A DNA stretch of 62,643 nucleotides, the filler included, from Globobulimina sp. (lineage: Eukaryota), in the NCBI GenBank assembly GCA_003354225.1. It is 17 parts of 17 records of this genome, joined end to end, with 100 filler letters (N's around TTAATTAATTAA, not from the genome) between each part and the next. Parts side by side here need not be neighbours in the genome. Positions count along the whole stretch, not along the records: positions 29,546 to 33,135 come from PIVH01002449.1; 16 more parts are not named here. One strand, given 5' to 3'. Of this stretch, positions 3,596 to 61,403 are shown piece after piece. The notes below the pieces were generated by a model that saw only the letters and a list, made by a program, of their open reading frames with translations, did not search any database and had not been told where the DNA came from. Numbering within the stretch: position 1 is the first letter of the stretch; every line of letters begins with the position of its first letter. The translations under genes and the position numbers were made by a program.

Positions 3596-3695
3596 NNNNN
3601 NNNNNNNNNNNNNNNNNNNNNNNNNNNNNNNNNNNNNNNTTAATTAATTAANNNNNNNNNNNNNNNNNNNNNNNNNNNNNNNNNNNNNNNNNNNN
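3596..3695. other. Artificial contig spacer (N44-TTAATTAATTAA-N44); 16 copies, one between each pair of contigs
   Basis: The same 100-nt block, with stops in all six frames, recurs about every 3.69 kb; contig lengths fall monotonically from 3595 to 3587. Confidence 0.99.
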
Positions 3696-4187
3696 CAAAA
3701 TTTGTTTTGTGGGAGAAACGATTCAAAACAATAAAATACGATCAAGAAAGCCTATGTATGCCAAGACATAATGGTGATCTTTAATTGTAAGATGTGTTTG
3801 CTCGTTTCATGATTAGACTAGTGCTCGTTTCAGGCAAGACAAAAAAGGTCAGTTTAATGGCACTTACTATCATGGCAAATACAGCTAAATTTCTCGTTTT
3901 ATATGTAACTGTCCGATAAGTAATGGTTGTTTTGCTAATTGCTATGCTAATCTACGTCTACTGTTTTGGAGCTAGAGAGGATGATGTTTGGAGAGAATGT
4001 TTTTGCTGAAAGTTCAAGATTGGCTCTATTAAACAATCCGATATATAGTGTGTAATATATAGTTTGTAGCAAGACAACAAATATTTTTAGTTTGTACATG
4101 TTCGTAGACATGAATTGATGTTAGAGAAACACTCAAAAATCAAAACAATGCAAATAAATATAGAATTTACCAAATAAATGATTGAAG

Positions 4188-7001
4188 TCAATCTTCTTGT
4201 TCGATCATTAAATTTTGTCTGGTTAAAATTGTATTTGCTTCATATTTTATTTTCTGTGCATTTTGTACAATTAATTTTTTTTGGATATTATTTGTTGAAA
4301 ATTTAGATTGTGAGGAAAGCGCTAAAATGATTGTTTCCAATGACGCATCAACAATATGTTGAATTGTAGTCAAACCACACCGATACAATATGCGAGCTCT
4401 GAATGCTTTAATATGATATATTTTCATTAACGGCAATAACTCCGAAGAGACGCCGTAATTTAATCGTTGACTAAAATGTGCAATTATTTGTGCCATACAA
4501 TTCCAATTTAATTTTATACAAAATATCGACAATGAAGAGGCGAATGACGCCGCACTTGTTTGCAATGACTGCATTACACCACCTTCGATATTAAAACGTT
4601 TCTCAATGTCATACAAACACTTTTCTTCAATGATTTGATTTAATATCACCGCACAATAAAATCTTTTATATTTTACATCCATTTTATTGTTTGATCCATA
4701 TTTTGGACGACGCGATGTGTTATGCGCAAAATCACACAATATCTTCTCCGAAATGCCAACACTTTCCGCAATCGCTTTTTTTGGGGCTGATAGCAACATA
4801 AAATATTCATAGTAACATTCCCAATCTGGGCGAATATTGCCTCCATTGTTCCTGACCGGCGATAACAAATAGCATAAATGCAATGAATTTGTTAAATGGA
4901 TGCCATATTTTCTGGTTTTGGCAATTTCTTCAAAAATCAGCAACGACTGATATGGATATAAACCACTTCCAACTGTCGCATAGCCCAAATTTGTAATTTC
5001 TAATGTTCCATCAAAATAGTTATCATTCATATTGTCGCATATCTCCATGCCACATTCCTTACTTTTTTGTAAGAATTCATTTTCAATCAACCAATCCAAT
5101 GCGATCCGACATTTTGCCTTCCATTCAATTTCCCCAATTTCAGTACACTGCAAACTTAGCGATAAATACCTCACCAAATCTGCGGATTTCTTGATTAAAT
5201 TTGTCCCAAAGCCTTCCAATATAAACCTCTGTAAATTTTGATTATTTTTCTCATTTTTGTCATCCAACAATTGTGAGTGAATCGCCTCTAACCGCGCATT
5301 GATCAAATTATCCACAACATACTTACACTCATTCTTATCCTTACAAATCACAATGCTCTCACCATACGAATCAATGCCTTTCCTGCCAGCTCTCCCCGCC
5401 ATTTGTTTATATTTCGTAGGCGAAATATGGCTCCGCCCAACCTTTGCCGTTCTAAATATGACTCTTCTCGCCGGCAACTTACATAACAAACAAGCAATTC
5501 AAACAAAAAAACAAACAGAAACAAACACATACATTCACGCCAGCGGCCAACGTGGATGTGGCCACTAATATATTTATTACATTCCTCCTGAATCCATTTT
5601 CAATGATTTCCCGCTCTTCCAACGTCAGCCCGGCGTGGTGATAGGCCACACCTGACAGTATACTCACTGCCAACACTGCACATATCGGCGTCGGCAGTTC
5701 CTTCAACTCTTCAATAATCATCTTACGTTTGTTAGTTACAGCTTGTACTCGCAACTGCAAACACTCCGCAATCATTTTACAACACTGTTTACACCAAACC
5801 TTCTTCTCACAGAACACCAAAACAGAGGCATTGACAGTGGTGACCTCCAGACATAACGTGACGACATGTTGTGGGTCTTTGGCTGCGCGAACGCTGGAAA
5901 TCTGTTTTAATTTTCGAAGGGCTTTTTGGGTCTTACCGTCATAGATTATATTGTCCAATTTGTAATATTGCGTCAATATCACTGGTCTGCTGCGTGTGAT
6001 GTATAATTTGGCCTGTAACCAATGTGCGATATGCTTTAAGTTTGGCAAAGTGGCCGACATGCCGATGATTTGTACATTATTCTGCAATATGAATAATATT
6101 TTTGTCAATAATATTTCTAATATCCAGCCACGATGTGCATCGCCGACATAATGGAATTCGTCAATGACCACGCAACCAAGCTGTGTGATTAAGTCTTCTT
6201 CGATCATTTTGTTTATGATGGAATTGGCTTTCTCGATGGTACAGCACAGAATGTCTGCATCTTCGATGCTGTTTATTGACACATTGGAATGATAGGCTTC
6301 CACTAAAATGGCCAGACAGTTTAGTTTGGATTTCAAATCTGACACTTTCTCGCGTACCAAGGAGATGAATGGCAGTATTAATAAACACTTCTTTTTTTCT
6401 AATAATATTCTACGAATCATCAATATTTCCGATATTAATGTTTTGCCGCCAGAGGTCGGTGCGCAATATAATAAGTTGTTGGTTTTGTTGTTGTTGTTAT
6501 TCGAATCAAACAACAATGACAAACATTCGATTTGCCAATCAAATAATTTTTTTATTCCTTTTAATGCATAATTTCCTACGATTTCGTGTGGAATTTGCCA
6601 ATAATTTAAGGATGATTTGATGTGATTGTTGTTGTTATTTAGTTGGGTTTGAAACGAAGGTGATTGGAATTGTCGTTTGGTTTCGGCTAACTTTTGTAAT
6701 TTTTGTTTGTCCAAAATACATTGATGTCGGCCTTCTTTGCCTTCGTATTCGTTTCCATCTAAATTGACATACACTCTTTTCCCTCCTTTTCGACATCGCC
6801 ATACTCCACGATGCTGTTTTTTGGTTTTATTATTTTTGACGCCATTTATATTTTGTTTAGGTCTTCTGTTGTTTGCTCTGCTTTTCTTGGCAATTTCCTT
6901 CAATCTGAAAAGAGTAATGCAATTCGTGCGAGCGTATAGGGATAGTTGAAATAACCTAACTTCTTACGTAAGTCTTTAGGATTATTTGAGAATTTCCCCA
7001 T
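4188..7001 (-). CDS. HELQ/POLQ-type Ski2-like DNA helicase (no polymerase domain); introns 6905-6960 and 5478-5532
   Basis: Motifs APTSGGKT, DEFH, GMSATL, HHAGL, ATSTLAAGVN|LPARRVI across an intron, QMAGRAGR; C-terminal HhH; spliced start reads MGKFSNNPKDLRKKLKE. Confidence 0.9.
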
Positions 7002-7390
7002 GGACTTAAGATGTTGACTGGCGAACTACAGTTCAAAAAAATTGCAACAACGTGACAACATGTGAAACCTGCACACCCTGTCGTGTTTCCGAAATAGTTA
7101 TAACAACACTAAAATATGGCAACACATTTTTGGGTACACCAGAGCTACTGTGTTTAGATACAATTGACTTTTTGCTTTCTGTGAAAATATGTGTTTTGGT
7201 TTGCTTTGCTTTGTTTTGTTATTTTTTTTCCCATGAAACCAATCAAGAAAGCAGAAACCATAAATATTATCATCATCACTATGAAAACTANNNNNNNNNN
7301 NNNNNNNNNNNNNNNNNNNNNNNNNNNNNNNNNNTTAATTAATTAANNNNNNNNNNNNNNNNNNNNNNNNNNNNNNNNNNNNNNNNNNNN

Positions 7391-8173
7391 TTACTCTGTT
7401 CGTCCCACACAACTCTCTCTGTGTCACTGTCATCGCTGTCATTATGTATTTGTGCGTTGTGAGTGCGAGGATACGTAAAATAGACTAAACTTATCCTGCA
7501 TAGATCTGCGCTGGTTATCATTTGAGGGAACTGGAGGGACAGTCCATGGACCACCATACGTCATCGATATATGTTGGAAAATGGGGTCATTTTTATCAAT
7601 TCTGATGGCAGCTTGGAATGAATATTCATAGATAGTTTGTAATAAATAGTTTCGATATAAAGGCTGTATTCCAAGCGTGTCATCCGTTGGAAGTGAGTTA
7701 TTTTTCACTTCTTCGTCGATTTGAGAGGATTTCTTTGTTAGCCAATCTGGCAATGAATGCGGTAGTTCTTCGCCGTCAAAGTGTGTAACTGAGGCATGCG
7801 AGCCTTTATGTATAGCGGATGGGTCGTAATGGCCCAATTGTAAGAATCCAATGACTGATCCTGTCACAATTAAGCCAATTATTACGATTGCTACCAAGGT
7901 GGCAGACTCACGACAGTTTTCATCTGATTCGCGTAAATAGGATGCGATGCGTTTGTTGACATCACGACGGGAGACTCGGTTTTGTGGCGGTTTGGAAGTG
8001 TTTGCTGGAGGGGTGTTTTGTGAGGTTAATGATGTGGTGTTGTTGATTGCAATTGGAATGTTGGTTAGGTTTGGATGATTATTGAGTGTGGGTGATGTGT
8101 CACTTTCATCTGAACCCATTAAACCTTGCGTTTCATGGTCATCTGCCTGTATTGGTACTGGTAGTGGTAGCAT
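7391..8173 (-). CDS. Single-pass (type II-like) membrane protein, 3' part truncated or spliced at contig edge
   Basis: 243-aa ORF with a low-complexity N-terminus and one hydrophobic helix (LVAIVIIGLIVTGSVIGFL). Confidence 0.55.
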
Positions 8174-8360
8174 TGTTGTATGATAAAAGCCGCCAAGTTT
8201 TTTTGAGTTTTTTTGACAAAGAAATCTTCAAAACTTTAAGAATCAAGGTCAGAATGTAACCGATGAAATATTACTATTGAAACAAAAAGTAGAAAGAACA
8301 CATAATTATAATAAAATAATAACAAGAAAGAAATAATAGAATGAAATTAAATAATAAAAG

Positions 8361-8810
8361 TCATTCGGATATATTTTGTTGACTGTCATCATCATTTTCT
8401 TTGGCAGACTGATACTGATTTGAATGGAACAAATAACCAAAAACAAAACAAATTCCACCGACACATAAATATGATACACATAAAATAATTAAACCAAATA
8501 AAATGCCACATTCAATAAATAAATCAGAATCTAAAATATCGCCATGATCATATTTATCAAATGCATTTGCGTCATAATAATTATTGTATTGACTCATATG
8601 TGCTTCGACACCAATTGGATCGACCTCATGTTTATTTTCTGTGCGTTGTTGTTGAGCATCTATGGCATTAAATATATCGTTTTCGTTGTTAGATGATATT
8701 TCATAGCTTGCCATGATGATAAAAATTGCATACAATGATAGCATGATGCAGATGCTGCCAAAAAAAGCCAAAATTAGGTAGCATCTAAAATTAATTTTGT
8801 CTGGCGACAT
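8361..8810 (-). CDS. Small membrane protein with two hydrophobic segments
   Basis: 149-aa ATG-initiated ORF with two clear TM-like stretches. Confidence 0.5.
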   Translation of the reverse strand: MSPDKINFRCYLILAFFGSICIMLSLYAIFIIMASYEISSNNENDIFNAIDAQQQRTENKHEVDPIGVEAHMSQYNNYYDANAFDKYDHGDILDSDLFIECGILFGLIILCVSYLCVGGICFVFGYLFHSNQYQSAKENDDDSQQNISE

Positions 8811-8848
8811 TAGGCCAAGGTCAACTAAGTTCAGTTCGGAAAAAAATA

Positions 8849-10533
8849 ATGTCAGCTAAATGTAAGCATTTTAAATGCTATTGTCAATCGTACCAAGTGT
8901 CAACATCAAAATGGTCCAAAGGAAAATGTAAACGCTGCAATCATTCAGCATCGGTGCATGGATCTGTCGCCATTCATACGAACACAGTATCAAAAGCTAT
9001 AAACAATGCTCATTACAATAACACTAACAATAAACATGACAGATTGCAAAGAGTATATAATGATTATGTTTCAAATAAGTATGCAAAACCATCAAATACT
9101 TATGATTTACTCAATTACATTGAATATAAGAATCTCACTGCCTTTTCATACAAAGAGGTGAATGACTTTCTATCATCGCATCACAACAAACATCAAATAA
9201 CAAAAACATATTCAAATAACAAAAACATATCAACCACTCATAGAACAGTGACAAATATATCAGCTGCAACTTACAAGAATGAAAATGTTGCAGAATTGTA
9301 CCAAATGTATTATAAAACGAAACGAATGAAACCTTCGACACCGCGGCAATTATTACAATATGGCAAAGGTTTTAATATCCATACGAAATGGAGTGAAGTC
9401 AGCAGGTTTTTGAGAAACAGTAAGCTTTATTTGGACTCATTAGTGACTGCGCATTCATTACAAAACGTAACAATCCCTCAAATGCATGCAAATACATTGA
9501 ATATCAAAGTCATAGACAGTGATACTAGTTTTTATTGGGTCAAAGGTCTTTCTTTAAATAGCACTGTCGATGATATCTGTGACAAATTGGCGCCACGTTT
9601 GATGCAATCGAGCACCAAAATTAATTTATATAAAGGCAATGAATCGCTGTCCCGATTCCGCACACTCAAACAAGTTAAAATAACTTTGATTGCTACATTT
9701 TATACATTCATTATTATGTTTAGTTGCGATTGGAAGATGGTGACAGTTTATATATGGGACTGTGGGATACCTCAATTGGAAAAGATTCATTTTTGCAAAG
9801 ATGTAAAGAAAAAAGGAAATGTCAGCCATCAGCTTCCACGGATCAGCGGAAAGCATATGGCACAAATTATAAACAAGGAACTCGAGCTCATACAAATAAA
9901 AATGGAAATGGCTGGAAAGGAAAAAAAATGGGCAAATGGACAAATGATGATATATTGGCGTGGATAAATAGTATGAATTTGGAGTATCAGTGGAAGAATA
10001 AATTAATGGACGAAATAAAAAACATTCAGTGTAATGGTAAAGATATTATGTCACTGAGATCAGCAAAAGAATTCGGTGAAGCGTTTGATATATCACATAA
10101 TAAAACGTTGTGCGATGACATATATCGGGAAATGAATACATTCAAATCACAGAAAACAAGGAAAAATGTTGCAATTGCAGGTGGTGGATCAGATGGAAAA
10201 TTTAAGATAAACATTTATAGCCAAAATAAATATATGAGTTTGGATGAAATGGTTTGCAGAAAAGTTCGCGTGAGACATGTCGCAGAATTATATAAGAGAC
10301 AATCCGCAGTGTCTGCATCATTGGATGATATTCATTTGTACGCTCATATGAAACTGCTACCGCAATGGGTATGGGATTCTGTTTAAAATTGTGTGTTGAA
10401 ACTTAATTTCTTTGTTTGTATATATATGATACAGAAAACATTGGAACAAGTTAATATCGTGGATGCAAAACATTTAATCACTGTCAAGTTTGCTGTAAAT
10501 GGCGCATCATTTTTAATTTATAATACATATTAA
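8849..10533 (+). CDS. Multidomain protein: Cys/His knuckle, ubiquitin-like, SAM, ubiquitin-like; introns 9674-9723 and 10369-10434
   Basis: Splicing joins LSRFRTLKQ|LRLEDGDSLYM and LLPQW|KTLEQVNI, completing two Ubl-like folds; SAM-like WTNDDILAWINSM. Confidence 0.65.
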
Positions 10534-10984: not shown

Positions 10985-11252
10985 NNNNNNNNNNNNNNNN
11001 NNNNNNNNNNNNNNNNNNNNNNNNNNNNTTAATTAATTAANNNNNNNNNNNNNNNNNNNNNNNNNNNNNNNNNNNNNNNNNNNNGCAATCCTCTTAGACA
11101 TAAGTAGACTTGAAATGTAACGGTCTCAAAAAAAACTTAGTTGAGCATAGTCTAATGAGACCAATACCGATAATTATGTCGTCGGTACCATTGCTACACT
11201 GAACCATTCGCCTAATATTCAATTACAATCATTAAATTGCCTTATTTTCAAT

Positions 11253-14200
11253 TTGTCAGAACAAAAAAATGTACACACACATGATATGCAACGACATTGC
11301 ACGACACTTGATACTATGCAAAATAACAGATTCTTCATCGGAAATAAGACCAGTCACTCGGTCCATAATTACTTCAACCATTTTATGTATGTAATCCGCA
11401 CTGAATGCGTTGCCGGATATATGATAAGCACGAAGAGCCATAAACATACGCGTAAATTGTACCGCTTTGTTGAGCGATATCAACATAGACTCAGAAAGCT
11501 GTATAAATACATTAAAATCATTATGGACAAATCTCTGCGATGGGTGACTTTACGTATGCCACAGCATCGATATCATCCCATCAAATCCTTCATATTGCGC
11601 AAATTCCCACAACATATTCGAATCAGATTCAAGAAGATACCGTACAATAAGGCGACTGTTGAAGCGACTGTTTACACACAGCTCCATGCTTTTAATAAAA
11701 GTCCTGCGAAAATCTTGACACTTTACGACTTCATAGTAAAAAACCACTATGTAGAGAACGACCCAATTTTACGGCAGTCAGCAACAAACAACAACTACCA
11801 CATCAAATGGTTTGTGCCGGTGGATAAAAAAGCTCATGAAATCCGAAATCACTGGCAAGGAATTCATAACAGTCTGAATGTGAACCTTCATTCACTACAT
11901 CGAGATAACTGGATAAATAACCAGAAAAATAATGCAATTATCTCATTAAACCAAATATACAAACACGCGATAAACAAATTCCGCACTGAAAACAGAACAC
12001 TCCGAGAATATAAAAATTATATGGTCAGCAAAGTAATACAGGACTATACCACCAATGAACAACAGAATGACACAGATATCCCTGAGATCATTTTAAAATA
12101 TCCATTCATGCAAATCTACACTCCCAACATTGAGCCTATATCCTCCACCCAAATCAGAATAAAAAACATGAAAATAGGGTTCCTAAATATCAATGGAAAG
12201 GCCAAAACCAAAATAAATCAAATGCATCCATATATGCAACAGCTTGTCACCCACCATAAACTTGACATTATTCTGCTAATTGACACAAGAAGTGTCCACC
12301 GACCCAATTGGAAACTACCTGGATATAAATTGTTAGTCCACAAAGCTCCAATCACCACAAAAAACCCCCAAAATGTTGGTGGCATCTTGATCTATTACAA
12401 ATATACCCTCCGTAACAAAATGAAACTGATCAAGAAGACCAGATGCCATAATACGGCATGGATCTCAATACAAATAGCTGGCCAATCCAAACCTTCCTAT
12501 GTTGCCATAAATTATGCCCGCACATACAAACCAAACCTAAGCGATCGAAGCCGCAAATTCTATGAATCACTCACTGCTGACATTAATAAATATAAACCAC
12601 TATGCCACAGTATGTATGTCATTGGTGATTTCAATGCCAGAATGGGATCCATTACCATGGACCATACCACCAATGGACACTACCGATACATGAAGCAAAT
12701 GTTGGATCAAACGCGCCTAAAAATAGCAAATCCACAGTTTGCCCCCAAATTCCTGACCTGTTTAGCCAAAGGCTCCCACAACAATGGAGGCTCTATAATT
12801 GATTACGTCATAACTGACAAATTAAATACCATCCATTCCATGAATATTGACACACATCCTGTGTTCATGGACCATAGACCTGTTGTGTTTACGTTGAATG
12901 ATATAAAATGTGAAACCAGCAACATTGACAAACACCTAATCCTAAGAGCCAATGAGCCAAACAGTGAATTGATAAAAATACACAGATCAATCCTAGAGGC
13001 AGCCACCAAACATATAGCCCGATTCGCAACATCCACGGAGACGTTCAACACAAAAAATGAGCACCAATACATCTCCCACATAGTATCCATGACTACTGCT
13101 TACATAATACACCTAGCCTCCATCAAAGCCTTTGGACTCTCTGACTACAATGCAGCCAACAGATGGTCCAACATATCCCGTAAACAGGTCACACTAAATA
13201 TAAAACAGAGACTATTATTAAACACAAATAATCAAACAGATGATGGGAAACAGCTGCTATTGGACGCTGAAAGAAATTACACCCAAAATAGATTGGACAC
13301 ACTCACCCAAAACACCGTCCGATTTGGCAATTTGAACCACGCCAATAAATTAAAGAAATTCAAGATATATAATAAAAACAAGGATTTTATTTTGGACGAA
13401 CCTTATCTCAAATATAAAAACACCATAATGGACAAAAATAAGGCGCTCTCGGAATTCTTCTGTGATATCAATGGTCCGATAGATGACCCGATGAGTAACC
13501 CGCACATGAATGACATCAACAATTTCAATGGAGACCTACTGAAACGCTGTGCGAATAACTTAACCTTTGCCCCAAATAAGCCTGAAAATCCCACACAGAA
13601 TGACACCGATAGTCCCCCACAAACCCTTGATTCCATCCGTAACTCACAAAATAACACACAAATAACCGATGATAATACTGCGGTCCCACACTACGACCCA
13701 AATTATATACCGCCGACCCAGCCTCTCTTAGATGATCTGTTTGAAATTGAATATAATGACGACAGTGATGACATGGCGATAGAGACGCCAGGAATATTGC
13801 AGGACCCTCAGAAAGACCGCCGAATAAAATATAAATCCATTGAGATGTCCATTTCATATGCAAATCAGAACAGTGCGCCGGGCTATGATGGCATCAAATC
13901 CATACACCTAAAAACCAATGGACGCCAAATCAACAAATTACTCTGTGTAATGTTCAACGTCTGGAACGCCACATATTTTATTCCCTATTATTGGCGCCTT
14001 GGCTCTATAATCCCTATATTGAAAACCAAAACAGGAGACACTCCAAATCAGTACAGGCCCATAACTTTACTGCCAATCATATTTAAGGCCTATGAACGCT
14101 TGATATTGTGGGAAATGTCCATTGCCCACAAATTCAGAAGAAACTTGCATATTTTGCAGGGCGGCAACCGATCACGAAGAGGAGTCCCAGAGCAAATAGG

Positions 14201-14678
14201 TGCCATTAATCTGATAGCTGAAACTGCGAAAATGAGAGAGATCCCATTATATAGCGCGCTGTTGGATATACGCAAAGCTTTTGACACTGTCTGGCGAAAA
14301 GGTTTGCTGTATAAACTAAATAAACAATTCAATATACCGCTTAACTTATGCAAAATCATTAAGGCAATATATGATAACTCGCATTCTGCCATAAGAGATC
14401 TGCCATTTATCACCAATAAATTCCTCCTTCATAATGGTGTATTACAGGGATCGGTCCTATCGCCTGTGTTATATGCTGCATTTCTGAATGATTTAATTGA
14501 TGAACTACAAAACTCGCAGTGCGGCGCTGCTGCGCCAGATCCAGACGAACCAATAGCATGCACATTGTACGCCGATGACATCATATTAACAGCGAACAAA
14601 ATCTCGCACCTACATAAACTCCTAAAAATATGCGAAACTCACAGTAATAAATGGCAATATCGATTCAATCAAAAAAAG
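11253..14678 (+). mobile_element. Non-LTR retrotransposon ORF (APE endonuclease plus reverse transcriptase), 3'-truncated by contig end
   Basis: APE motifs FLNING, GGILIY, GDFNAR, IDYV, DHRPV; RT motifs APGYDG, YRPITLL, LDIRKAFDTV, GVLQGSVLSP, YADD; uninterrupted frame. Confidence 0.95.
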
Positions 14679-18663: not shown

Positions 18664-20841
18664 TTAAATACTATTTTCCAAGGCATCGATAGATTGATTC
18701 GCAAAATATACCACATCGATATCATCATCATTTTCCACGATAACTTGCAATTTGTCCAAAATGCCTTCCATAAACTGCCGGCGGATCAACTTATTCTTCG
18801 CCAAAAACGTCACAATCTGACACGCCTTAAACCGCACATTTGGCACTTTGTCGCAAGCCATAAAATGAATAATCTCCTGAATCAATTCGCTGTTTTGCTT
18901 GACCCCCAGCCCTTCGCTTAAATACTTAAACGCCAACAAATAGATCAAACGATGCAAATAGTTCTTAGACTCATACATCTTGGCCACCAGACTCGGTATC
19001 AATTTCTGTCGCGTCCACCCAAAATCATCCTGCTCGCTCTCCTCGAATATGCGGCTAATCTCAAACAAGTTGCTGGCCGCAGACAGCCGGATATCCGACA
19101 CGTTGTCCTCCAAACTCGCCAGACATAAATCAAACAGACGTTCGTTGAAAAACGCTAATCCAAACTGCTTGGCCAAGGCTGGGAACTTATCGATAATCCC
19201 CAGCCGAACTCGCCAGTCATTGTCCAACGTCAACTCCATGATGCTGGGAATTATGCTTTCTTCCAACAAAGAAATGTCAAAATCCGAGCCTTTGCCGTTG
19301 TTGTTATCAGAACAAATGTTGCTGATAACATGCAAGCGTACATTGGGATACTCGTCCTTCAAAATACACAAAATGCAGCTCAATATGTGTTCAATTACGA
19401 CCTGATGCGGCAACAAATAGCAAAATGGAATGATGATGCTCGCCAACGAAGCGCGGGCATATTTGTTGCTGTCGCACACCAATTCCTTGCTGATGATGGG
19501 AATCAACTTCGTGATGCTCAGCTCTTTGCCGATCAGCGTGCTCATTTCGGGGATTTTGCTGATCGCAACGGCACGGACCTCCGCCTCCTGGTCTTGCAAC
19601 AGGCGGATAAAATAATTGATCATCGAGTCGCTGATGCATTGCGAGTCCAACATTTGGCACAGTTTTATGAAGTTATCAGCGGCAATGTACCGCACTCGCC
19701 AGGCCTGATCGATGCATAATAAGCGAATGTGATACAACAAATGCGACACAACCTCGGATTTATCGAAGATGTCGCTGAATTGGATGAGAGTCTCCACGGC
19801 GAAGACGCGCACATTGTCCTGGTCGTCGCCGGACAGTTTCTTGAATAGAGGGAGATACTGCGAGAGGACCTGCTGTTTGTCCGTCGCGTTGCGCCCATCC
19901 AGACACGCCACCATCTTCCCGAGCGTTATAATGGCACTTCGACGCACAATGGGCAGCGAATCGGAGCACAATTCAGATAGCAACAGCAACATATCCTTCT
20001 TGTAAGAGATCAGACGCTCTCTCTCCTCCGTTGCCTCTTCATTTTCAGTTTCATTGTCAGCGTCCAATTCGTTTAATAATTCAACGAACTTTGAAAAGGC
20101 ATTGGCTATTAAGGTGGCGCCTGATTTGTACGTCAGAATTTTAGAATTTTCCCGCAATTTCGCAGTGTGAGTAGGTACAGTACAGAGTTACATGCCTGAC
20201 ATGCGGGCCGTGTTCCAGTCGCAATGACACAGTCTATTGAAGAGTGGCAATATATATTGGTGGAAATAGAAAGGTTTGTGCTTGTAAGGCATGTTATAAA
20301 TGATTTTGCCGAATTTGTTGGTGGCTTCGTCGCGAATTATTTTCTCTTCGACTTGGCATAGCCGCTCAAACGGAGGGATCAAGCAAAAGGAAAAGGGGTT
20401 GTTGACGGAGCTGGCGCCGCCAATCAATTTGAGCGTCAATAATCGGTAGATCTCTTCAATTAAAACTAATAAGACTTCGTCGTCGTCGTCGATCATTTGC
20501 GTGATGTATGGGATCAATTCGTTGCGAGTGCGCTCTTCGCCTAAGGCTTTGGAGATGATTGGCAAGGAACGGATCGCCTTGATGCGCACCGCCGGGTCGT
20601 CCTTCATTAACTCGTCAATCATTATGGCGATGCTTTCGAGATCTTCTTCGCTGATTTCCACGTCGAATTGTTCTGCTTTTATGTTTGTGTTTAGGTCGTT
20701 GTCTTCATCAACATCCTCCTCGTCGTCGAGGTCCATTTGCGTTTTGTGAGTTGCTTCATTTGTTTTCATGGTGGTGTCGTTGTCAAAATCTAGTTGTTTC
20801 AGAGTGGCTGTATTTGGGGATTCCGGATCCATGTTTTCCAT
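18664..20841 (-). CDS. Protein phosphatase 2A scaffold (A/PR65) subunit-like HEAT-repeat protein; intron 20121-20195 (GC-AG)
   Basis: ALGEERTRNELIPY, DDDDEVLLVL, DQDNVR, AWRVRY, DQEAEVR, DWRVR, DKVPNVRF, DDDIDVVYFA. Confidence 0.93.
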
Positions 20842-28982: not shown

Positions 28983-29545
28983 AACGGCTGTCATATTGTC
29001 CGAGAATTTGTTTTGACCTCAATTTATTGATTTCTTTTTTTTTTTTTATAATTATAAAATTTCAATTTATTTAATATGAAGAAAATTAATATTGATTTTA
29101 CAAAATATATTTGCGAAAACTCAGCAAAAAGTATGATATTTAAAATTTTCATAACCAATTCAATTATTATGTGTTTGCATGTATTAATTTCCAGTTATTT
29201 GATGCCTTTCTAAACCAATTGGAATCATTATCATTCACAAACAATAATTTTCTGTAATTTTCATTGACGTTGAATGACAATATAATTTTGCCATTATCAA
29301 TCCAGTTAATATCTGCAATAATTGGTGACTAAATTTGTGTGTGCAATTTAAATTCATTTTCATTTTGTAATTATTCTCTTTTTTAGCACAGCAAAACCTT
29401 TCTTTTGAGGTAATGCACGTGGAAGCAAAACCTGTTCTGGTGACTNNNNNNNNNNNNNNNNNNNNNNNNNNNNNNNNNNNNNNNNNNNNTTAATTAATTA
29501 ANNNNNNNNNNNNNNNNNNNNNNNNNNNNNNNNNNNNNNNNNNNN

Positions 29546-32500
29546 CTCCATGTTTTCGGGGCGATACACTGAAAGCAGTTGATGAATTCGTCTTTCTTGA
29601 GTTCATTGGCTAGCTGTCCCAAAGCTTCTCCTCTCACTGGTTCTGGTGCTCCAGGGATACGCATGTAGACCAAACTGTCTGAAAATAACATCGTTACCTA
29701 TATTTTTTCCTCATCAGATAGCTTACCCGTATCGCAGTAGAGGGCTCTGTCTCCGACGACTTCCAAACACTTTTCCAACAAAGTAATTCTAGCTAGAGCT
29801 GTGACCATTGCCCCTAGCACTGGATTGTACATGCTTGTTTCAGTGATAAACTCTTGCTTCTTTTGGTAGCTGAGCACGAGGGTGCGATCGGCGATTTGCT
29901 CCACTCTGTTTATTACAATCTCCTTGTCATCCATCTTGCGTTTCAAATCTAGCCAGGAATTCGCGAAGCATGTGAAGGTCTTGGCTGACCGTTCGCAGAA
30001 CTTTCCTGCAAATGAAATGTATAGGAGTGAACAAGCTTTTTGTTACCATTACCCCACAGGGAATTCATAAGAATCTTAGCCGATTGTCTCATCGCCGGAG
30101 AAGGACTGAGATCTTCTGCCTTCAAATCCAAACCCTCCACGCGCTCATTCCATTGTTTACAAAATTCTTGAGGCGTCATATGAGATGGCACTTCGCTGTG
30201 CTGAGTCTTCATCTTGATCATCCTGGATACATATTCGGCCATGATTTTTGCCTTCTCTGGTCCATAGTCCCAAAGCTAAGAAATTACACTTTAGCTAATG
30301 TATCGCACGGGGTTTAACTTACTTCAAATATATGGGTAACTACATAACCTCTCTGTATGGCTTTGAGCAACTCGTAGAATGTGTATACTCCTTCCAGGGC
30401 ACGTTCGTCACCATCGTGGTCGCATCCCTGCAAACAGTGGACTCATTGGTGGGCTTTCAGTTACAGTTTAGCACTTACCATGTCATTGTCTTCTTTGGCG
30501 CAGGTACGACAGAGGGGAAACACTGTCTTGTCTCTGGTTCTGTATGGTAGCACTGCATAGGGCAGTCGGTATGGTGGCAACACTGTGCAGTAACAAAGTC
30601 CATAGTTGTTGTCCAACAATTCCTCGAGTTCCTTCTCATTATCCACCAATTGTTTGAGTCTGGCAATTTCCACAATCACCGTTGGATGGGGGTTGGTAGT
30701 ATACGAAAAAGCCCATTGCACATAGGGATACAGTGAGCAGAAATCCACATATTCGATGGTATAGCCGCGCATGATTTGTTCGTCTGTCAGAACCATTCTA
30801 GGTTTGAATGATTCAACTCGCCCACCAAATACCTAAAGTTTGGAGCACGTTGTATTGCCAACAGATAAATATATATGCTTACGGCTTTGCTCGGATCGAG
30901 CGGTTGTTTGTATTTCTTCAACATCTCACCATCCTTCATGAATGAGCTCAGCAAAGGGTTGGCACTCATTTCCTTGATAATTTCGCAGGTCCATATGGCA
31001 TGGACAGTCCTACCAGTCTCCTCAATTTGTTGCAACCTTGCGATTGTTTGAATGTTGACATCTTCGAAGGTCAGTGGTTTCCTCGTGGGATGTATCGATT
31101 TTCTTGATTGCCATAGACAGTCAGATGGTGTCGAAGTATGCGCATGCCAATAGCAGCCCCTGTATACAGTACTCAATCTATATTAGGTAATGTGGTCAAT
31201 ATCAACTTACAAAATCTCATAGACATCTCCACTTTGTTGACAATATCCATCCACATGAAATGGCCCAATCGTAATTTCTCCAACCGAGTTGTTGGCACAG
31301 ATGAGTGGCTGTTCTCCATTGCTTGTTCGTTGATGATTCAAGAAATCGAGATAAGCCGATCCTTGCCATGATTGTCCAGTTCTTCTTGGATTTCGGTAAC
31401 CTGAACAGCTTTGTAGACATTTTATGCAATTACATTAACTGAATAGAACTTACCTCCGTATGGTACAATTCCTATTCTGTGATGCATGAACAAACTCTTG
31501 TAGATCGATGCAGAAAATGATGCGAGAGTAAAATTTCGGCCAAGTAATGGGTCGACTTCTCCATCGGTCAGTTTGAGACAGCTATTGCGAAACACCTTCC
31601 AAGCTGCTTCCAATATTTTGACATCCATTCTGAAAACTATAATTAACAACAGTTCTACATATTGGCAAACTTACCGGCAGTATTTGAGTGCTTCGTCCTT
31701 CAAGACAAATACATAGTTTTGATCATTCTCCAGGGGTGTGTACCACTTCCAGAATTCTTCGGCCTTTTCATCAACCATTCTCTCAATTGCATAGTCATGG
31801 GCTGGGGGTATTTTACCGCTGTAGTTCAAAGGTTTGCGATCGACCAGTTTGTATGGAAAGAATCCCTTCTCAACTCCTTTGAGCCCCAGCATGGCAGGCA
31901 GCTTGTCCAGCGCTGCTTTCATAAACTGCAGGGAGTCTTTCAGTTGAATTTTCTTCCATGAAAATGATAGCAGATCATTGGCTTTGAAATGCAGGGTAGG
32001 TTTAGCTCCAACAGCCGCCATATAGGAATAAATAAAGTAGCCGTCGAAAGATGAGCTGAAACATAGCTGTTTGAACTTGAATTAAGTCATTATAATCATA
32101 CCTGTTATGAGCTGTCAGTATAGTCCGATACTTTTCGAATCTTTTGTTGGTTGTTAGCCAGTCGCAGAAATCGTTTGCACAGTCCCATCCGTAGTAGTCT
32201 CTGTATCTGGGTCCACATTGGGTACAGTTGTCAGTTTCCACATCGATACACAGCTCGCAGTTGATGGCACAACAGATCAGGTATGGCACAAGATGTCCTT
32301 CCTCGTCCACACCAGTTTCGGTATCAAAGTAAACAACTAAAATGTAAAAGTTATTATCTACACTCTAAGACATTTTCGCTTACCATTAAAATGGTCTGAT
32401 CCACCTAATCTGGTCCTCTCAGATGGTTCCTGCACTTCGCACAGATGCAACGCTGGATCAACCTGAAATAATTATGATAATCGTTGTCCAATCAATTGAT

Positions 32501-33135
32501 TTTAAGCACTTACTTCTTCGAAACAATGCTGACATTTGGGTTTCTTCTCACATTTATGATTCTTGTCCTCGGTGTATCTGACAGAAAGACATGTTTGACA
32601 TCTGAGACGCTTGGTAAGGCACACCCGTTGGGTCTCATTGCCATGGGTCAAGTAGCATCTGACATGTTTGAATGTCAAATTGCACATCTCACATATGATT
32701 ATGGTGTCAGGGGTTTCCATGGCTTCGCAGTTGACTCTTTCGCATTGTGGGCAAACGTCTTGGCAGAGATGTCTCTTTCTGGCATCGTAAATGGTAACAC
32801 ATCTTGGACAGTACCTTCTCTCACCTCCAATGAATGCAGCCAAATTCCATATCAGGTAGTAGTGCTTGTTTAACAACAACAAAAACATTTGATCGTCTTC
32901 TTGTCTTTCGGGTTCTCCGGTGAATACTTGTTCCGAGGAGTCATTCAGCACAATGATCTGTTTCCCATGACGCTCATTGAACATGGTTTGGAACTTCTTG
33001 AGCTGGTCTGGACCACATTCCTCCTCCGAATCGACTCCTGCGCCGGCATACAGTTGGGTGGTGAGAATGTTGAGTGCTGGGCTCTTCTGGGGATTCTTGT
33101 AGAATTGAGCCTGTTTGAAATCCTTGTCTCCTTGG
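29546..33135 (-). CDS. Protein-primed family B DNA polymerase (Polinton/Maverick pPolB type) with inserted Vsr-like nuclease domain; 11 introns; truncated at both ends
   Basis: Spliced motifs: ExoI YFDTET, ExoII HNSSSFDGYF, DSLQFM, KGFFPY, ExoIII YCRMDV, FGGRVE, motif A YVDFCSLYP, motif B KILMNSLWGKF, motif C YCDTDS, APKTW. Confidence 0.92.
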
Positions 33136-33328
33136 NNNNNNNNNNNNNNNNNNNNNNNNNNNNNNNNNNNNNNNNNNNNTTAATTAATTAANNNNNNNNN
33201 NNNNNNNNNNNNNNNNNNNNNNNNNNNNNNNNNNNGAAAGGATAAAATGTTTCGGCAAAAAAGTGGTATTTATTATATACTGTTAATATGTATGACGACA
33301 ATTACATTGGTTATATATATAATTCAGT

Positions 33329-60133: not shown

Positions 60134-61403
60134 ATGAAGTCGTTACGTCGCTTAATAAATAAACCAAAAAATCTAATTATTTTTTTATGTCGAAGGCGCT
60201 GTGGGCAATTAATGTCATATTGTTGTACTAAATCACGTTTACGATGGATTGAGGATATAATAATTGACATTTTAGATTTTGTAATAAATAAAGGAATGAG
60301 AGCATTAGGCCCTGTATTAGCATTGGCAGCAACCTGCTTAATATCATTAGTTATTTATCAATATTTCGAAGAGGTATTCCCTCATTTAACAACTATAAAA
60401 TATCCAAACTCTTCATTTACGCCGTATATAATAACATTGATTGGCATCTTTTTGGTAATAAACATATTATTTAATCACCAATCATGCGTTTGGACATCGC
60501 CTGGTTATGCACCATTGTCAATAGCATTATATCCAAAAGGAACGCAACAAATACCTTCAAAATATTACAAATACGATCCTGAATTAAAATCTTCGGATGT
60601 TGTCCGATATTGTAACCAATGCCAATGTTATAAATCATGGCGATCTCATCATTGCTCCATATGTAAAAGATGTGTATTAAAAATGGATCACCATTGGTAT
60701 TTTTCTTCTTTTTCTTTTTCTATTATAATGTTTAATATTTAATATTTACAGTCCATGGATGATGAATTGTGTCGGCTATGCAAACTATCGCTATTTTTAT
60801 ATGTTTTTATTTTATTTATGGTTTGGTACATTATTTTATGTATATGTTGGTTACGAAGCTTTATTTGAGTCATTTCGAGTTAAATCCTGTGCGTATCCGT
60901 GGTTACCATTTTTCTTTTGTCGGATTGCCAGATTAAAACATAAATTGATACCAAGTGATGGTGTGGATGAATTTGGCAATGTTTTGCAACAAAAGATTCC
61001 AATTAAACGGAATGAATTATTTGTTTTTACCTATTTTTTATGTATTGGAATATTTGTTGTTATGATTGCTTTTTTAGGATTTCATACTTATTTAATTATT
61101 ACAAATCAATCTACGTTAGAAACGATGACTAATTTTAGCAAAAGAGCAAGATCCTATCGCCGATTTCAACGATTAAGGAATGTAAAATATTTATATAAGT
61201 TAACAATTTTAGAAAATATTCAAGAAATTATGGGTGAAAAATGGTATTTAGCATTATTACCAATTTGGACCAAACCAAGAGGGAATGGATATATTTATCC
61301 ATTAAGAAAAGAAATTGAAAATGTACTGTTCACTTCAAAATCTGCTATGGAACAACACGACATTGACACTTGCCATAACAATACAAATATGTCGTTGCCA
61401 TAA
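60134..61403 (+). CDS. DHHC palmitoyltransferase; intron 60697-60751
   Basis: [40 protein letters not shown] motif. Confidence 0.95.

Follow-up and report, generated by a model that had tools for sequence, protein, structure and literature searches.

A protein-primed DNA polymerase gene split by short introns on a contig of the Globobulimina sp. assembly, probably from a Polinton/Maverick-type element

Why should a gene for a protein-primed family-B DNA polymerase (pPolB), related to the replicases of Polintons/Mavericks, be split by 11 tiny introns, and does such a gene belong to an element or to the host that carries it? The locus that raises this question lies in a 62.6-kb stretch of the Globobulimina sp. 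assembly GCA_003354225.1, called the window below. It occupies positions 29546-33135, which are the exact ends of one 3590-nt contig between two linkers. An initial annotation of this DNA had left the choice between a host-domesticated pPolB and an intron-rich Polinton-like lineage. We consider it probable that the contig derives from the interior of a replicase gene belonging to a Polinton/Maverick-type (Preplasmiviricota) virus-like element, from a lineage rich in short spliceosomal-type introns.

The polymerase gene runs off both contig ends, so that the neighbours of the contig give no gene context. The main features of the encoded protein are the following:

29546 to 33135, minus strand: the whole 3590-nt contig, internal part of a pPolB gene, 1017 codons in 12 exons
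32439 to 32810, minus strand: N-terminal Cys/His-rich array, residues 109-215, preceding the exonuclease domain
32311 to 32331, minus strand: YFDTETG with the acidic pair D238/E240, Exo I
30725 to 30751, minus strand: YVDFCSLYP, polymerase motif A
29548 to 29562, minus strand: APKTW at the contig end, with the K of KxY kept and W in place of Y

The profile PF03175 (DNA_pol_B_2) matches exon 4 with an E-value of 3e-10 and 40 bits, against a curated cut-off of 25.8 (profile positions 19-144). It also matches exon 8 (E 1.3e-4, positions 214-305) and exon 10 (E 1.6e-3, positions 368-383), the order of the profile being kept. The spliced product matches full-length pPolBs with E-values from 1e-75 to 1e-121 (best 1.8e-121), and homologues extend beyond the part present here by a median of 142 residues before it and 102 after it. 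The assignment to protein-primed family-B polymerases and the proposed check, i.e. splicing the gene and searching it against PF03175, are thus both borne out. The initial annotation had also described the Exo I-III and Pol A-C residues as intact. All are kept (D238/E240, H310/D316, Y437/D441, D683-SLYP, K873..W880-G881 and Y970-DTDS). Of 97 columns conserved at 90% or more across 32 full-length homologues, the protein retains 87, these residues among them. The names Exo I-III, Pol A-C and KxY are those that we take to apply to these motifs. No Pfam family matches the N-terminal Cys/His array above threshold. All 18 Cys/His columns conserved in at least 30 of the 32 full-length homologues (at least 90%) are present in it, and it is probably a zinc-binding domain typical of this polymerase group. 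Judging by family membership, the polymerase may be primed from a terminal protein.

The gene is interrupted by 11 introns with GT-AG ends, 45-53 nt long and with a G+C content of 27-45% (45% in the exons), i.e. about 3.6 introns per kb of coding sequence. They are listed below with the relatives that share or lack them, namely the loci L001 and L002 from one metagenome assembly, the database copy P0003/P0151 and contigs from runs X1 and X3, all of which are presented further on. A slash marks the place of an intron within a motif.

32463 to 32513, minus strand: intron 1, 51 nt, phase 0, after residue 207; also in L002 (L001 does not reach it)
32337 to 32383, minus strand: intron 2, 47 nt, phase 1, residue 234; also in L001 and L002
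32056 to 32101, minus strand: intron 3, 46 nt, phase 2, residue 312, inside AHN/SSSFD (Exo II); also in L001 and L002
31630 to 31674, minus strand: intron 4, 45 nt, phase 2, residue 439, inside YCR/MD (Exo III); also in L001 and L002
31401 to 31453, minus strand: intron 5, 53 nt, phase 1, residue 498; also in L001 and L002
31160 to 31210, minus strand: intron 6, 51 nt, phase 2, residue 561; also in L001 and L002
30833 to 30882, minus strand: intron 7, 50 nt, phase 0, after residue 653; also in L001, L002 and X3 contigs
30428 to 30478, minus strand: intron 8, 51 nt, phase 0, after residue 771; also in L001 and L002, absent in the P0003/P0151 copy
30276 to 30322, minus strand: intron 9, 47 nt, phase 0, after residue 806; also in L001 and L002, with indels in a diverged X1 copy
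30006 to 30052, minus strand: intron 10, 47 nt, phase 1, residue 881, inside NSLWG/KF (motif B); also in L001 and L002
29679 to 29726, minus strand: intron 11, 48 nt, phase 1, residue 974, inside YCDT/DS (motif C); in L001, absent in L002, with indels in a diverged X1 copy

Removal of these introns leaves 3054 nt, in which one frame of 1017 codons has no stop whereas the other two have 43 and 39. A purpose-written spliced protein-to-DNA aligner recovered the same 11 introns. In an independent test, spliced alignments made with this aligner and guided by the homologues P0067, P0054, P0019 and P0074 recovered 9, 8, 9 and 7 of the 11 exactly; these guides are single long database proteins, intronless by assumption, their DNA being unchecked. 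The remaining guided calls were near-misses within poorly conserved stretches, and the guides scored 705-867 against 56 for a control with a reversed protein. The gene structure first proposed, i.e. 11 GT-AG introns of 45-53 nt whose removal gives a single stop-free frame and four of which cut HN/SSSFD, YCR/MD, NSLWG/KF and YCDT/DS, was recovered in full. All four guided runs also miscalled as a 39-nt intron a 13-codon in-frame stretch of exon 8 (30634-30672, minus strand; gene-strand positions 2463-2501), which has no counterpart in the four guides. This stretch is open in the spliced frames of the contig, L001 and L002 and is a lineage-specific insertion.

Are these introns shared by relatives? 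An exhaustive HMMER search with exon 8 returned 792 proteins at E <= 0.001. The three best matches share 59-67% identity with it and are only 118-154 amino acids (aa) long, i.e. the size of an exon. Two of these three fragments run into V-R-K or V-S-Y at the end of exon 8, as expected from reading GTAAG. P0003 (cluster mate P0151) continues in frame into exon 9, so that this copy lacks intron 8. Farther matches, 45-53% identical in this motif A exon, are proteins of about 1100-1750 aa, mostly from metagenome contigs of 4.8-18 kb. Of 20 clusters looked up, seven carried a name, and six of the seven are animal proteins (Caerostris, Tubulanus, Apostichopus, Ischnura, Diadema and Caenorhabditis brenneri). 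A homologue search with exon 4 against the longer proteins gave no match. Scanning metagenome contigs led to L001 (3040 nt) and L002 (11331 nt); no relative was found among GTDB genome contigs, nor in IMG/VR with a polymerase exon or with the penton of L002 (see below). The exon-sized nearest proteins and the empty IMG/VR scan agree with the initial annotation, according to which searches based on open reading frames (ORFs) would miss such a gene.

L001 and L002 splice into stop-free frames of 811 and 852 codons. Each of the three copies has 11 introns in the homologous part, and L002 has a twelfth past the end of the contig's part. Introns 2-11 of the contig are found at the same residue and phase in L001, and introns 1-10 in L002; the comparison of intron positions across homologues that had been called for thus yields 10 of 11 positions in common with each relative. 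An extra intron after residue 355, absent from the contig, is present in both L001 and L002. Single introns have been gained or lost within the lineage at positions 355, 771 (intron 8) and 974 (intron 11).

These shared positions stand in genes that have diverged deeply. The contig is 76% identical in amino acids to L001 and 65% to L002, and L001 and L002 are 68% identical to each other. Synonymous sites are saturated (proportion of synonymous differences, pS, 0.72-0.93), whereas nonsynonymous divergence (dN) is 0.16-0.27. The ratio of dN to synonymous divergence (dS) is 0.066 between the contig and L001, the only pair with a computable dS, so that purifying selection on the coding sequence is strong. 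The introns themselves evolve freely, the likeness between orthologous ones (0.49-0.71) being no more than that of shuffled controls (0.61). The 33 introns of the three copies measure 45-55 nt and share the consensus GAG/GTAAGT ... TTTCAG/G. GT-AG ends, a frame restored by their removal and positions conserved while the intron sequence drifts are properties of spliceosomal introns, and the 11 introns of the contig would be removed from RNA by splicing. In a tree of the three copies and 42 database polymerases of at least 866 aa, shorter matches being left out, the three group together (SH-aLRT 100); the stem of their clade measures 1.17 changes per column, and the tree gives the clade no firm place among the other sequences. 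All three copies carry lineage-specific replacements at eight columns that are otherwise conserved, i.e. a W for Y in the KxY motif and G337A, P698T/S, G700N, P746A, L756T, F818M and N865S. The contig alone has one more, at P379.

The element context of this family is that of L002 only, which is cut at both ends and whose gene models are open after splicing. Its polymerase continues for about 165 codons past the end of the contig's part, after the twelfth intron, and then reaches a stop. Four genes lie on the strand opposite the polymerase:

L002, opposite strand: penton ORF, 253 codons, intronless, with four full-length homologues
L002, opposite strand: capsid-like gene, 445 codons, 2 introns
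L002, opposite strand: P-loop ATPase, 231 codons, 1 intron, Walker A and B recognised by eye
L002, 6899 to 7955, opposite strand: integrase-like gene, with a 46-nt intron at SDAG/GEF

Three of these four linked genes (capsid-like, ATPase and integrase-like) thus also carry tiny introns. The four homologues of the penton ORF are 54-60% identical to it and are full-length ORFs of 249-266 aa. Its AlphaFold model finds as best match in BFVD the minor capsid protein/penton of mavirus (E 3.3e-8), followed by virophage, adintovirus, adomavirus LO5 and adenovirus pentons. In the PDB, the mavirus penton (6g41/6g42, E 2e-8) comes first, then Sputnik 3j26_N and the adenovirus penton base. This predicted fold supports the presence, in L002 only, of the penton (minor capsid, single jelly roll) expected of a Polinton/Maverick. 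Atlas features of the penton lead to Preplasmiviricota, cnidarian and arthropod clusters, and those of an exon of the capsid-like gene to double jelly roll (DJR)-like and Capsid_N clusters (0.95-0.97); these are leads, not tests. The capsid-like gene has no match in Pfam, PHROGs, PDB sequences or a homologue search against longer proteins. A single-sequence AlphaFold model of its exon was discarded for its predicted local distance difference test (pLDDT) value of 33.7.

The two other linked genes have weak matches. The ATPase reaches 12.4-12.6 bits against Pox_A32 (cut-off 22.8) and the integrase-like gene 15.5 bits against rve (E 0.021-0.023, cut-off 32.6). The latter also has a weak match to an IS481 transposase (E 9.2e-5, NCBIfam) and one to the PDB integrase 3dlr (E 0.99). 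PHROGs gave no match for the L002 genes and NCBIfam none besides IS481, and sequence searches of the PDB with the integrase, ATPase and capsid exons gave no significant match. Searching the window with the other L002 proteins (tblastn) gave no match. Several ORFs of L002 without family match lie at 3912-5848 and 7870-8982, and no protease was recognised among them. On the plus strand these are three ORFs, with candidate introns at 4451-4502 and 4889-4941, and a further one at 8491-8982; two on the minus strand lie at 5209-5848, and a Cys-rich one at 7870-8397 is RING-like.

Sequencing runs give some indications about the copies of the gene and their carrier. Run X1, which is probably the source sample, contains 0.71 of the sampled words of the contig. 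Among the 23 pieces placed from it, 15 are less than 90% alike, some of them with a higher word depth than the near-identical pieces. Furthermore, 11 of the 12 indel rows listed for X1 fall inside introns 9 and 11, which indicates that these introns, and the frame of the exons, are retained by diverged copies within this sample. Pieces 95-100% identical to the contig were found in the marine metagenome X2 and in X3, a run labelled with another organism, so that the carrier or the element seems to be widespread in marine samples. Run X4 gave no piece placed on the contig.

Several observations weigh against reading the contig as part of a Polinton/Maverick-type replicase from an intron-rich lineage. 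It carries the polymerase only, without any neighbouring gene, terminal inverted repeat (TIR) or target-site duplication on its 3590 nt, and the context is borrowed from another assembly and from a relative at only 65% amino-acid identity. In that relative, the penton model has a pLDDT of 62.7, with TM-scores of 0.3-0.4 and sequence identities of 8-15% to its matches. The integrase, ATPase and major-capsid assignments lie below curated thresholds or are Atlas leads only. No adenain-like protease was found among the L002 ORFs with Pfam and NCBIfam, and no TIRs were seen in this locus, cut at both ends. The sequences of the contig, L001 and L002 all stop within a gene or near one. In the polymerase itself, the last conserved motif reads K-T-W; K1015 is kept and W1017 stands where 29 of 32 homologues have Y, a change common to the three intron-bearing copies. 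One X1 contig has a 1-nt deletion at 29797 (exon 11), only 38 nt from the end of that contig, so that it may be an artefact. X3 contigs include intron 7 and X3 is labelled 'RNA?', a label that is itself a guess, although this is no evidence either way on splicing. Finally, older founding descriptions may already mention introns in some Polintons, although the literature consulted holds no report of position-conserved, intron-rich core genes besides the work on introners (see below). Some of these points also concern the word 'intact' in the initial annotation, which is too strong for a gene with both ends off the contig, neither start nor stop codon in a frame open at both sides, a K-T-W motif and a 1-nt deletion in one X1 contig.

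As a first alternative, a captured Polinton polymerase could have become a single-copy cellular gene that gains introns and serves its host. An intron density of about 3.6 per kb, conserved positions and a dN/dS of about 0.07 do resemble those of a host gene, and the contig shows no integrase, capsid gene or TIR, but it is too short to reveal neighbours. Against this alternative, the polymerase of L002 has penton, capsid-like, ATPase-like and integrase-like genes beside it, several diverged copies occur in X1, some at a higher word depth than the copy studied here, and both L001 and L002 come from one assembly. Domestication of the single gene, one of the two options of the initial annotation, is very unlikely because capsid genes accompany the polymerase in a relative and one sample contains several diverged copies. 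Its other option, an intron-rich Polinton-like lineage, is favoured by three deeply diverged copies with common intron positions and by the genes linked to L002. The host could also have kept a whole endogenised virus, as a domesticated gene set without autonomous spread comparable to polydnavirus-like systems. Host-type introns in the polymerase, capsid-like, ATPase-like and integrase-like genes of L002 (the penton ORF has none) and the full-length state of all penton homologues would suit this explanation. However, the occurrence of several diverged copies in one sample and in one metagenome assembly is what a family that proliferates would give, pieces 99% identical turn up in three samples with different labels, and an integrase-like gene is kept; we therefore hold it to be improbable, if slightly less so than domestication of the polymerase alone. 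As for a decayed pseudogene whose introns would be chance GT...AG segments or assembly errors, the deletion seen in one X1 contig is in its favour, but it was rejected as next to negligible in view of the stop-free spliced frame (against 39-43 stops in the other frames), the intron positions and phases common to two diverged copies, the dN/dS and the reversed-protein control.

Another alternative concerns the origin of the contig and is compatible with its coming from a Polinton/Maverick-type element. The DNA could belong to another eukaryote (prey, epibiont or co-sorted cell) or to free element DNA, rather than to the AT-rich, intron-poor organism of the other contigs. The window is a chain of 17 contigs of about 3.59 kb each, whose lengths fall slowly from about 3595 to 3587 nt. 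They are joined by 16 assembly linkers of 100 nt; since these join unrelated contigs, adjacency within the window is without biological meaning:

3596 to 3695 and 7291 to 7390: examples of the linkers N44-TTAATTAATTAA-N44, not biology
29446 to 29545: linker N44-TTAATTAATTAA-N44, splitting the polymerase contig from an unrelated contig
33136 to 33235: linker N44-TTAATTAATTAA-N44, not biology
5478 to 5532, minus strand: intron of 55 nt on a neighbour contig, helicase-like or DHHC-like gene, by eye
60697 to 60751, plus strand: intron of 55 nt on a neighbour contig, helicase-like or DHHC-like gene, by eye
about 20115 to 20190, minus strand: intron of about 75 nt on a neighbour contig, HEAT-repeat (PP2A-A-like) gene, by eye

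The neighbour contigs are AT-rich, with ORFs of 400-1191 codons and few introns. A splice-site matrix, partly trained on the polymerase contig, detects 10 tiny introns there on the gene strand, against a total of 7 for both strands of the other 16 contigs, and the donors of the neighbours' introns read, by eye, GTATGT, GTATTT and GTAACT against GTAAGT here. The matrix counts, these long ORFs and the 99%-identical pieces in X2 and X3 speak for another origin. On the other side, the neighbours do carry a few GT-AG introns, two of them measured at 55 nt (one in a helicase-like and the other in a DHHC-like gene), and the G+C content at third codon positions is 0.50 in the gene, inside the range of 0.16-0.61 of the neighbours' ORFs, so that composition is uninformative on provenance. 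A foreign origin is a serious possibility, to which we give somewhat less than even chances. On one neighbour contig, a 1191-codon open frame at 11151-14678 (plus strand) fills the whole contig and looks, by eye, like ORF2 of a non-LTR retrotransposon (endonuclease and reverse transcriptase).

How does this gene compare with known systems? With the pPolB of Polintons/Mavericks from animals and metagenome contigs, including named but uncharacterized proteins of Apostichopus japonicus, Diadema antillarum, Tubulanus polymorphus, Ischnura elegans and Caenorhabditis brenneri, it shares PF03175, the Exo I-III and Pol A-C columns and the N-terminal Cys/His array. It differs from them in its 11-12 introns, its relatives being mostly encoded by one ORF on metagenome contigs (assumed intronless, their DNA being unchecked), and in that the three copies with introns group apart, on a long stem and with eight replacements of their own. 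Adenoviruses are nuclear double-stranded DNA viruses with a protein-primed PolB and rely on the host spliceosome for their expression, as proposed here. Their splicing mostly joins leaders to whole ORFs and their polymerase coding sequence is not split into a dozen small exons, unlike that of the contig. The likeness to mavirus and other virophages, adintoviruses and adenoviruses lies in the best fold matches of the penton ORF, a protein of L002 and not of the window.

In the portions of the cited sources that were consulted, core genes are described as intronless in vertebrate Mavericks, 'in agreement with Kapitonov and Jurka (2006)' (PMC8097293), in nematode Mavericks (Widen et al., preprint 10.1101/2022.07.12.499685) and in Cafeteria virophage-like elements (PMC8547959). 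Likewise, the consulted portion of a large survey states that protist endogenous viruses 'do not contain introns' (PMC10120064), and a prokaryotic gene caller was used there because the genes were considered intronless. An exception is provided by the Maverick-polinton-like elements of dinoflagellates, virus-like elements with pPolB, integrase and capsid genes in which spliceosomal-type introns have arisen by recent insertion of introners (PMC11957031 / PMC12166617). Roughly 25% of the viral elements of dinoflagellates carry introners, most of which were gained once the element had integrated (PMC11957031). Compared in pairs, the 11 introns of the contig have a mean identity of 0.61 and a maximum of 0.69, against a mean of 0.61 and a maximum of 0.74 in a shuffled-core control. 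Being no more alike than such controls, they are not introner copies, and an introner origin was rejected. Unlike the dinoflagellate introners, they also occupy positions common to copies whose synonymous divergence is saturated.

The Polinton/Maverick-type reading can be put as a sequence of steps. The element would sit or replicate in the nucleus of an intron-rich, probably marine eukaryote, where host RNA polymerase II would transcribe its genes and the host spliceosome would cut out the 45-55-nt GT-AG introns. Translation of the spliced mRNA would then yield a protein-primed PolB, active both as proofreading exonuclease and as polymerase, able to copy the linear DNA of the element. Since the element is passed on as DNA and not through RNA, its introns would be inherited and could persist, appear or disappear like those of host genes. 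Splicing, activity, the host and the location of the contig's copy in such an element are all inferred. The wider proposal is of an active Polinton-like lineage of a marine eukaryote, with host-like architecture, at least 16 tiny introns over polymerase, integrase, packaging ATPase and major capsid genes, ongoing intron gain and loss, and invisibility to ORF-based discovery. We put it forward tentatively, its chances being close to but short of even.

On the best reading, what would be new here is the presence of about a dozen old, position-conserved introns in a Polinton-type replicase, together with introns in capsid-like, ATPase-like and integrase-like genes. If this is true, such elements can depend fully on nuclear splicing, and intron gain and loss could be traced in a mobile element. 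It would also mean that ORF-based screens miss whole lineages, of which protein databases contain only exon-sized pieces and IMG/VR none. Should the lineage be both active and intron-rich, it would offer a natural system to study how nuclear DNA viruses acquire and keep introns, and current catalogues would undercount such elements.

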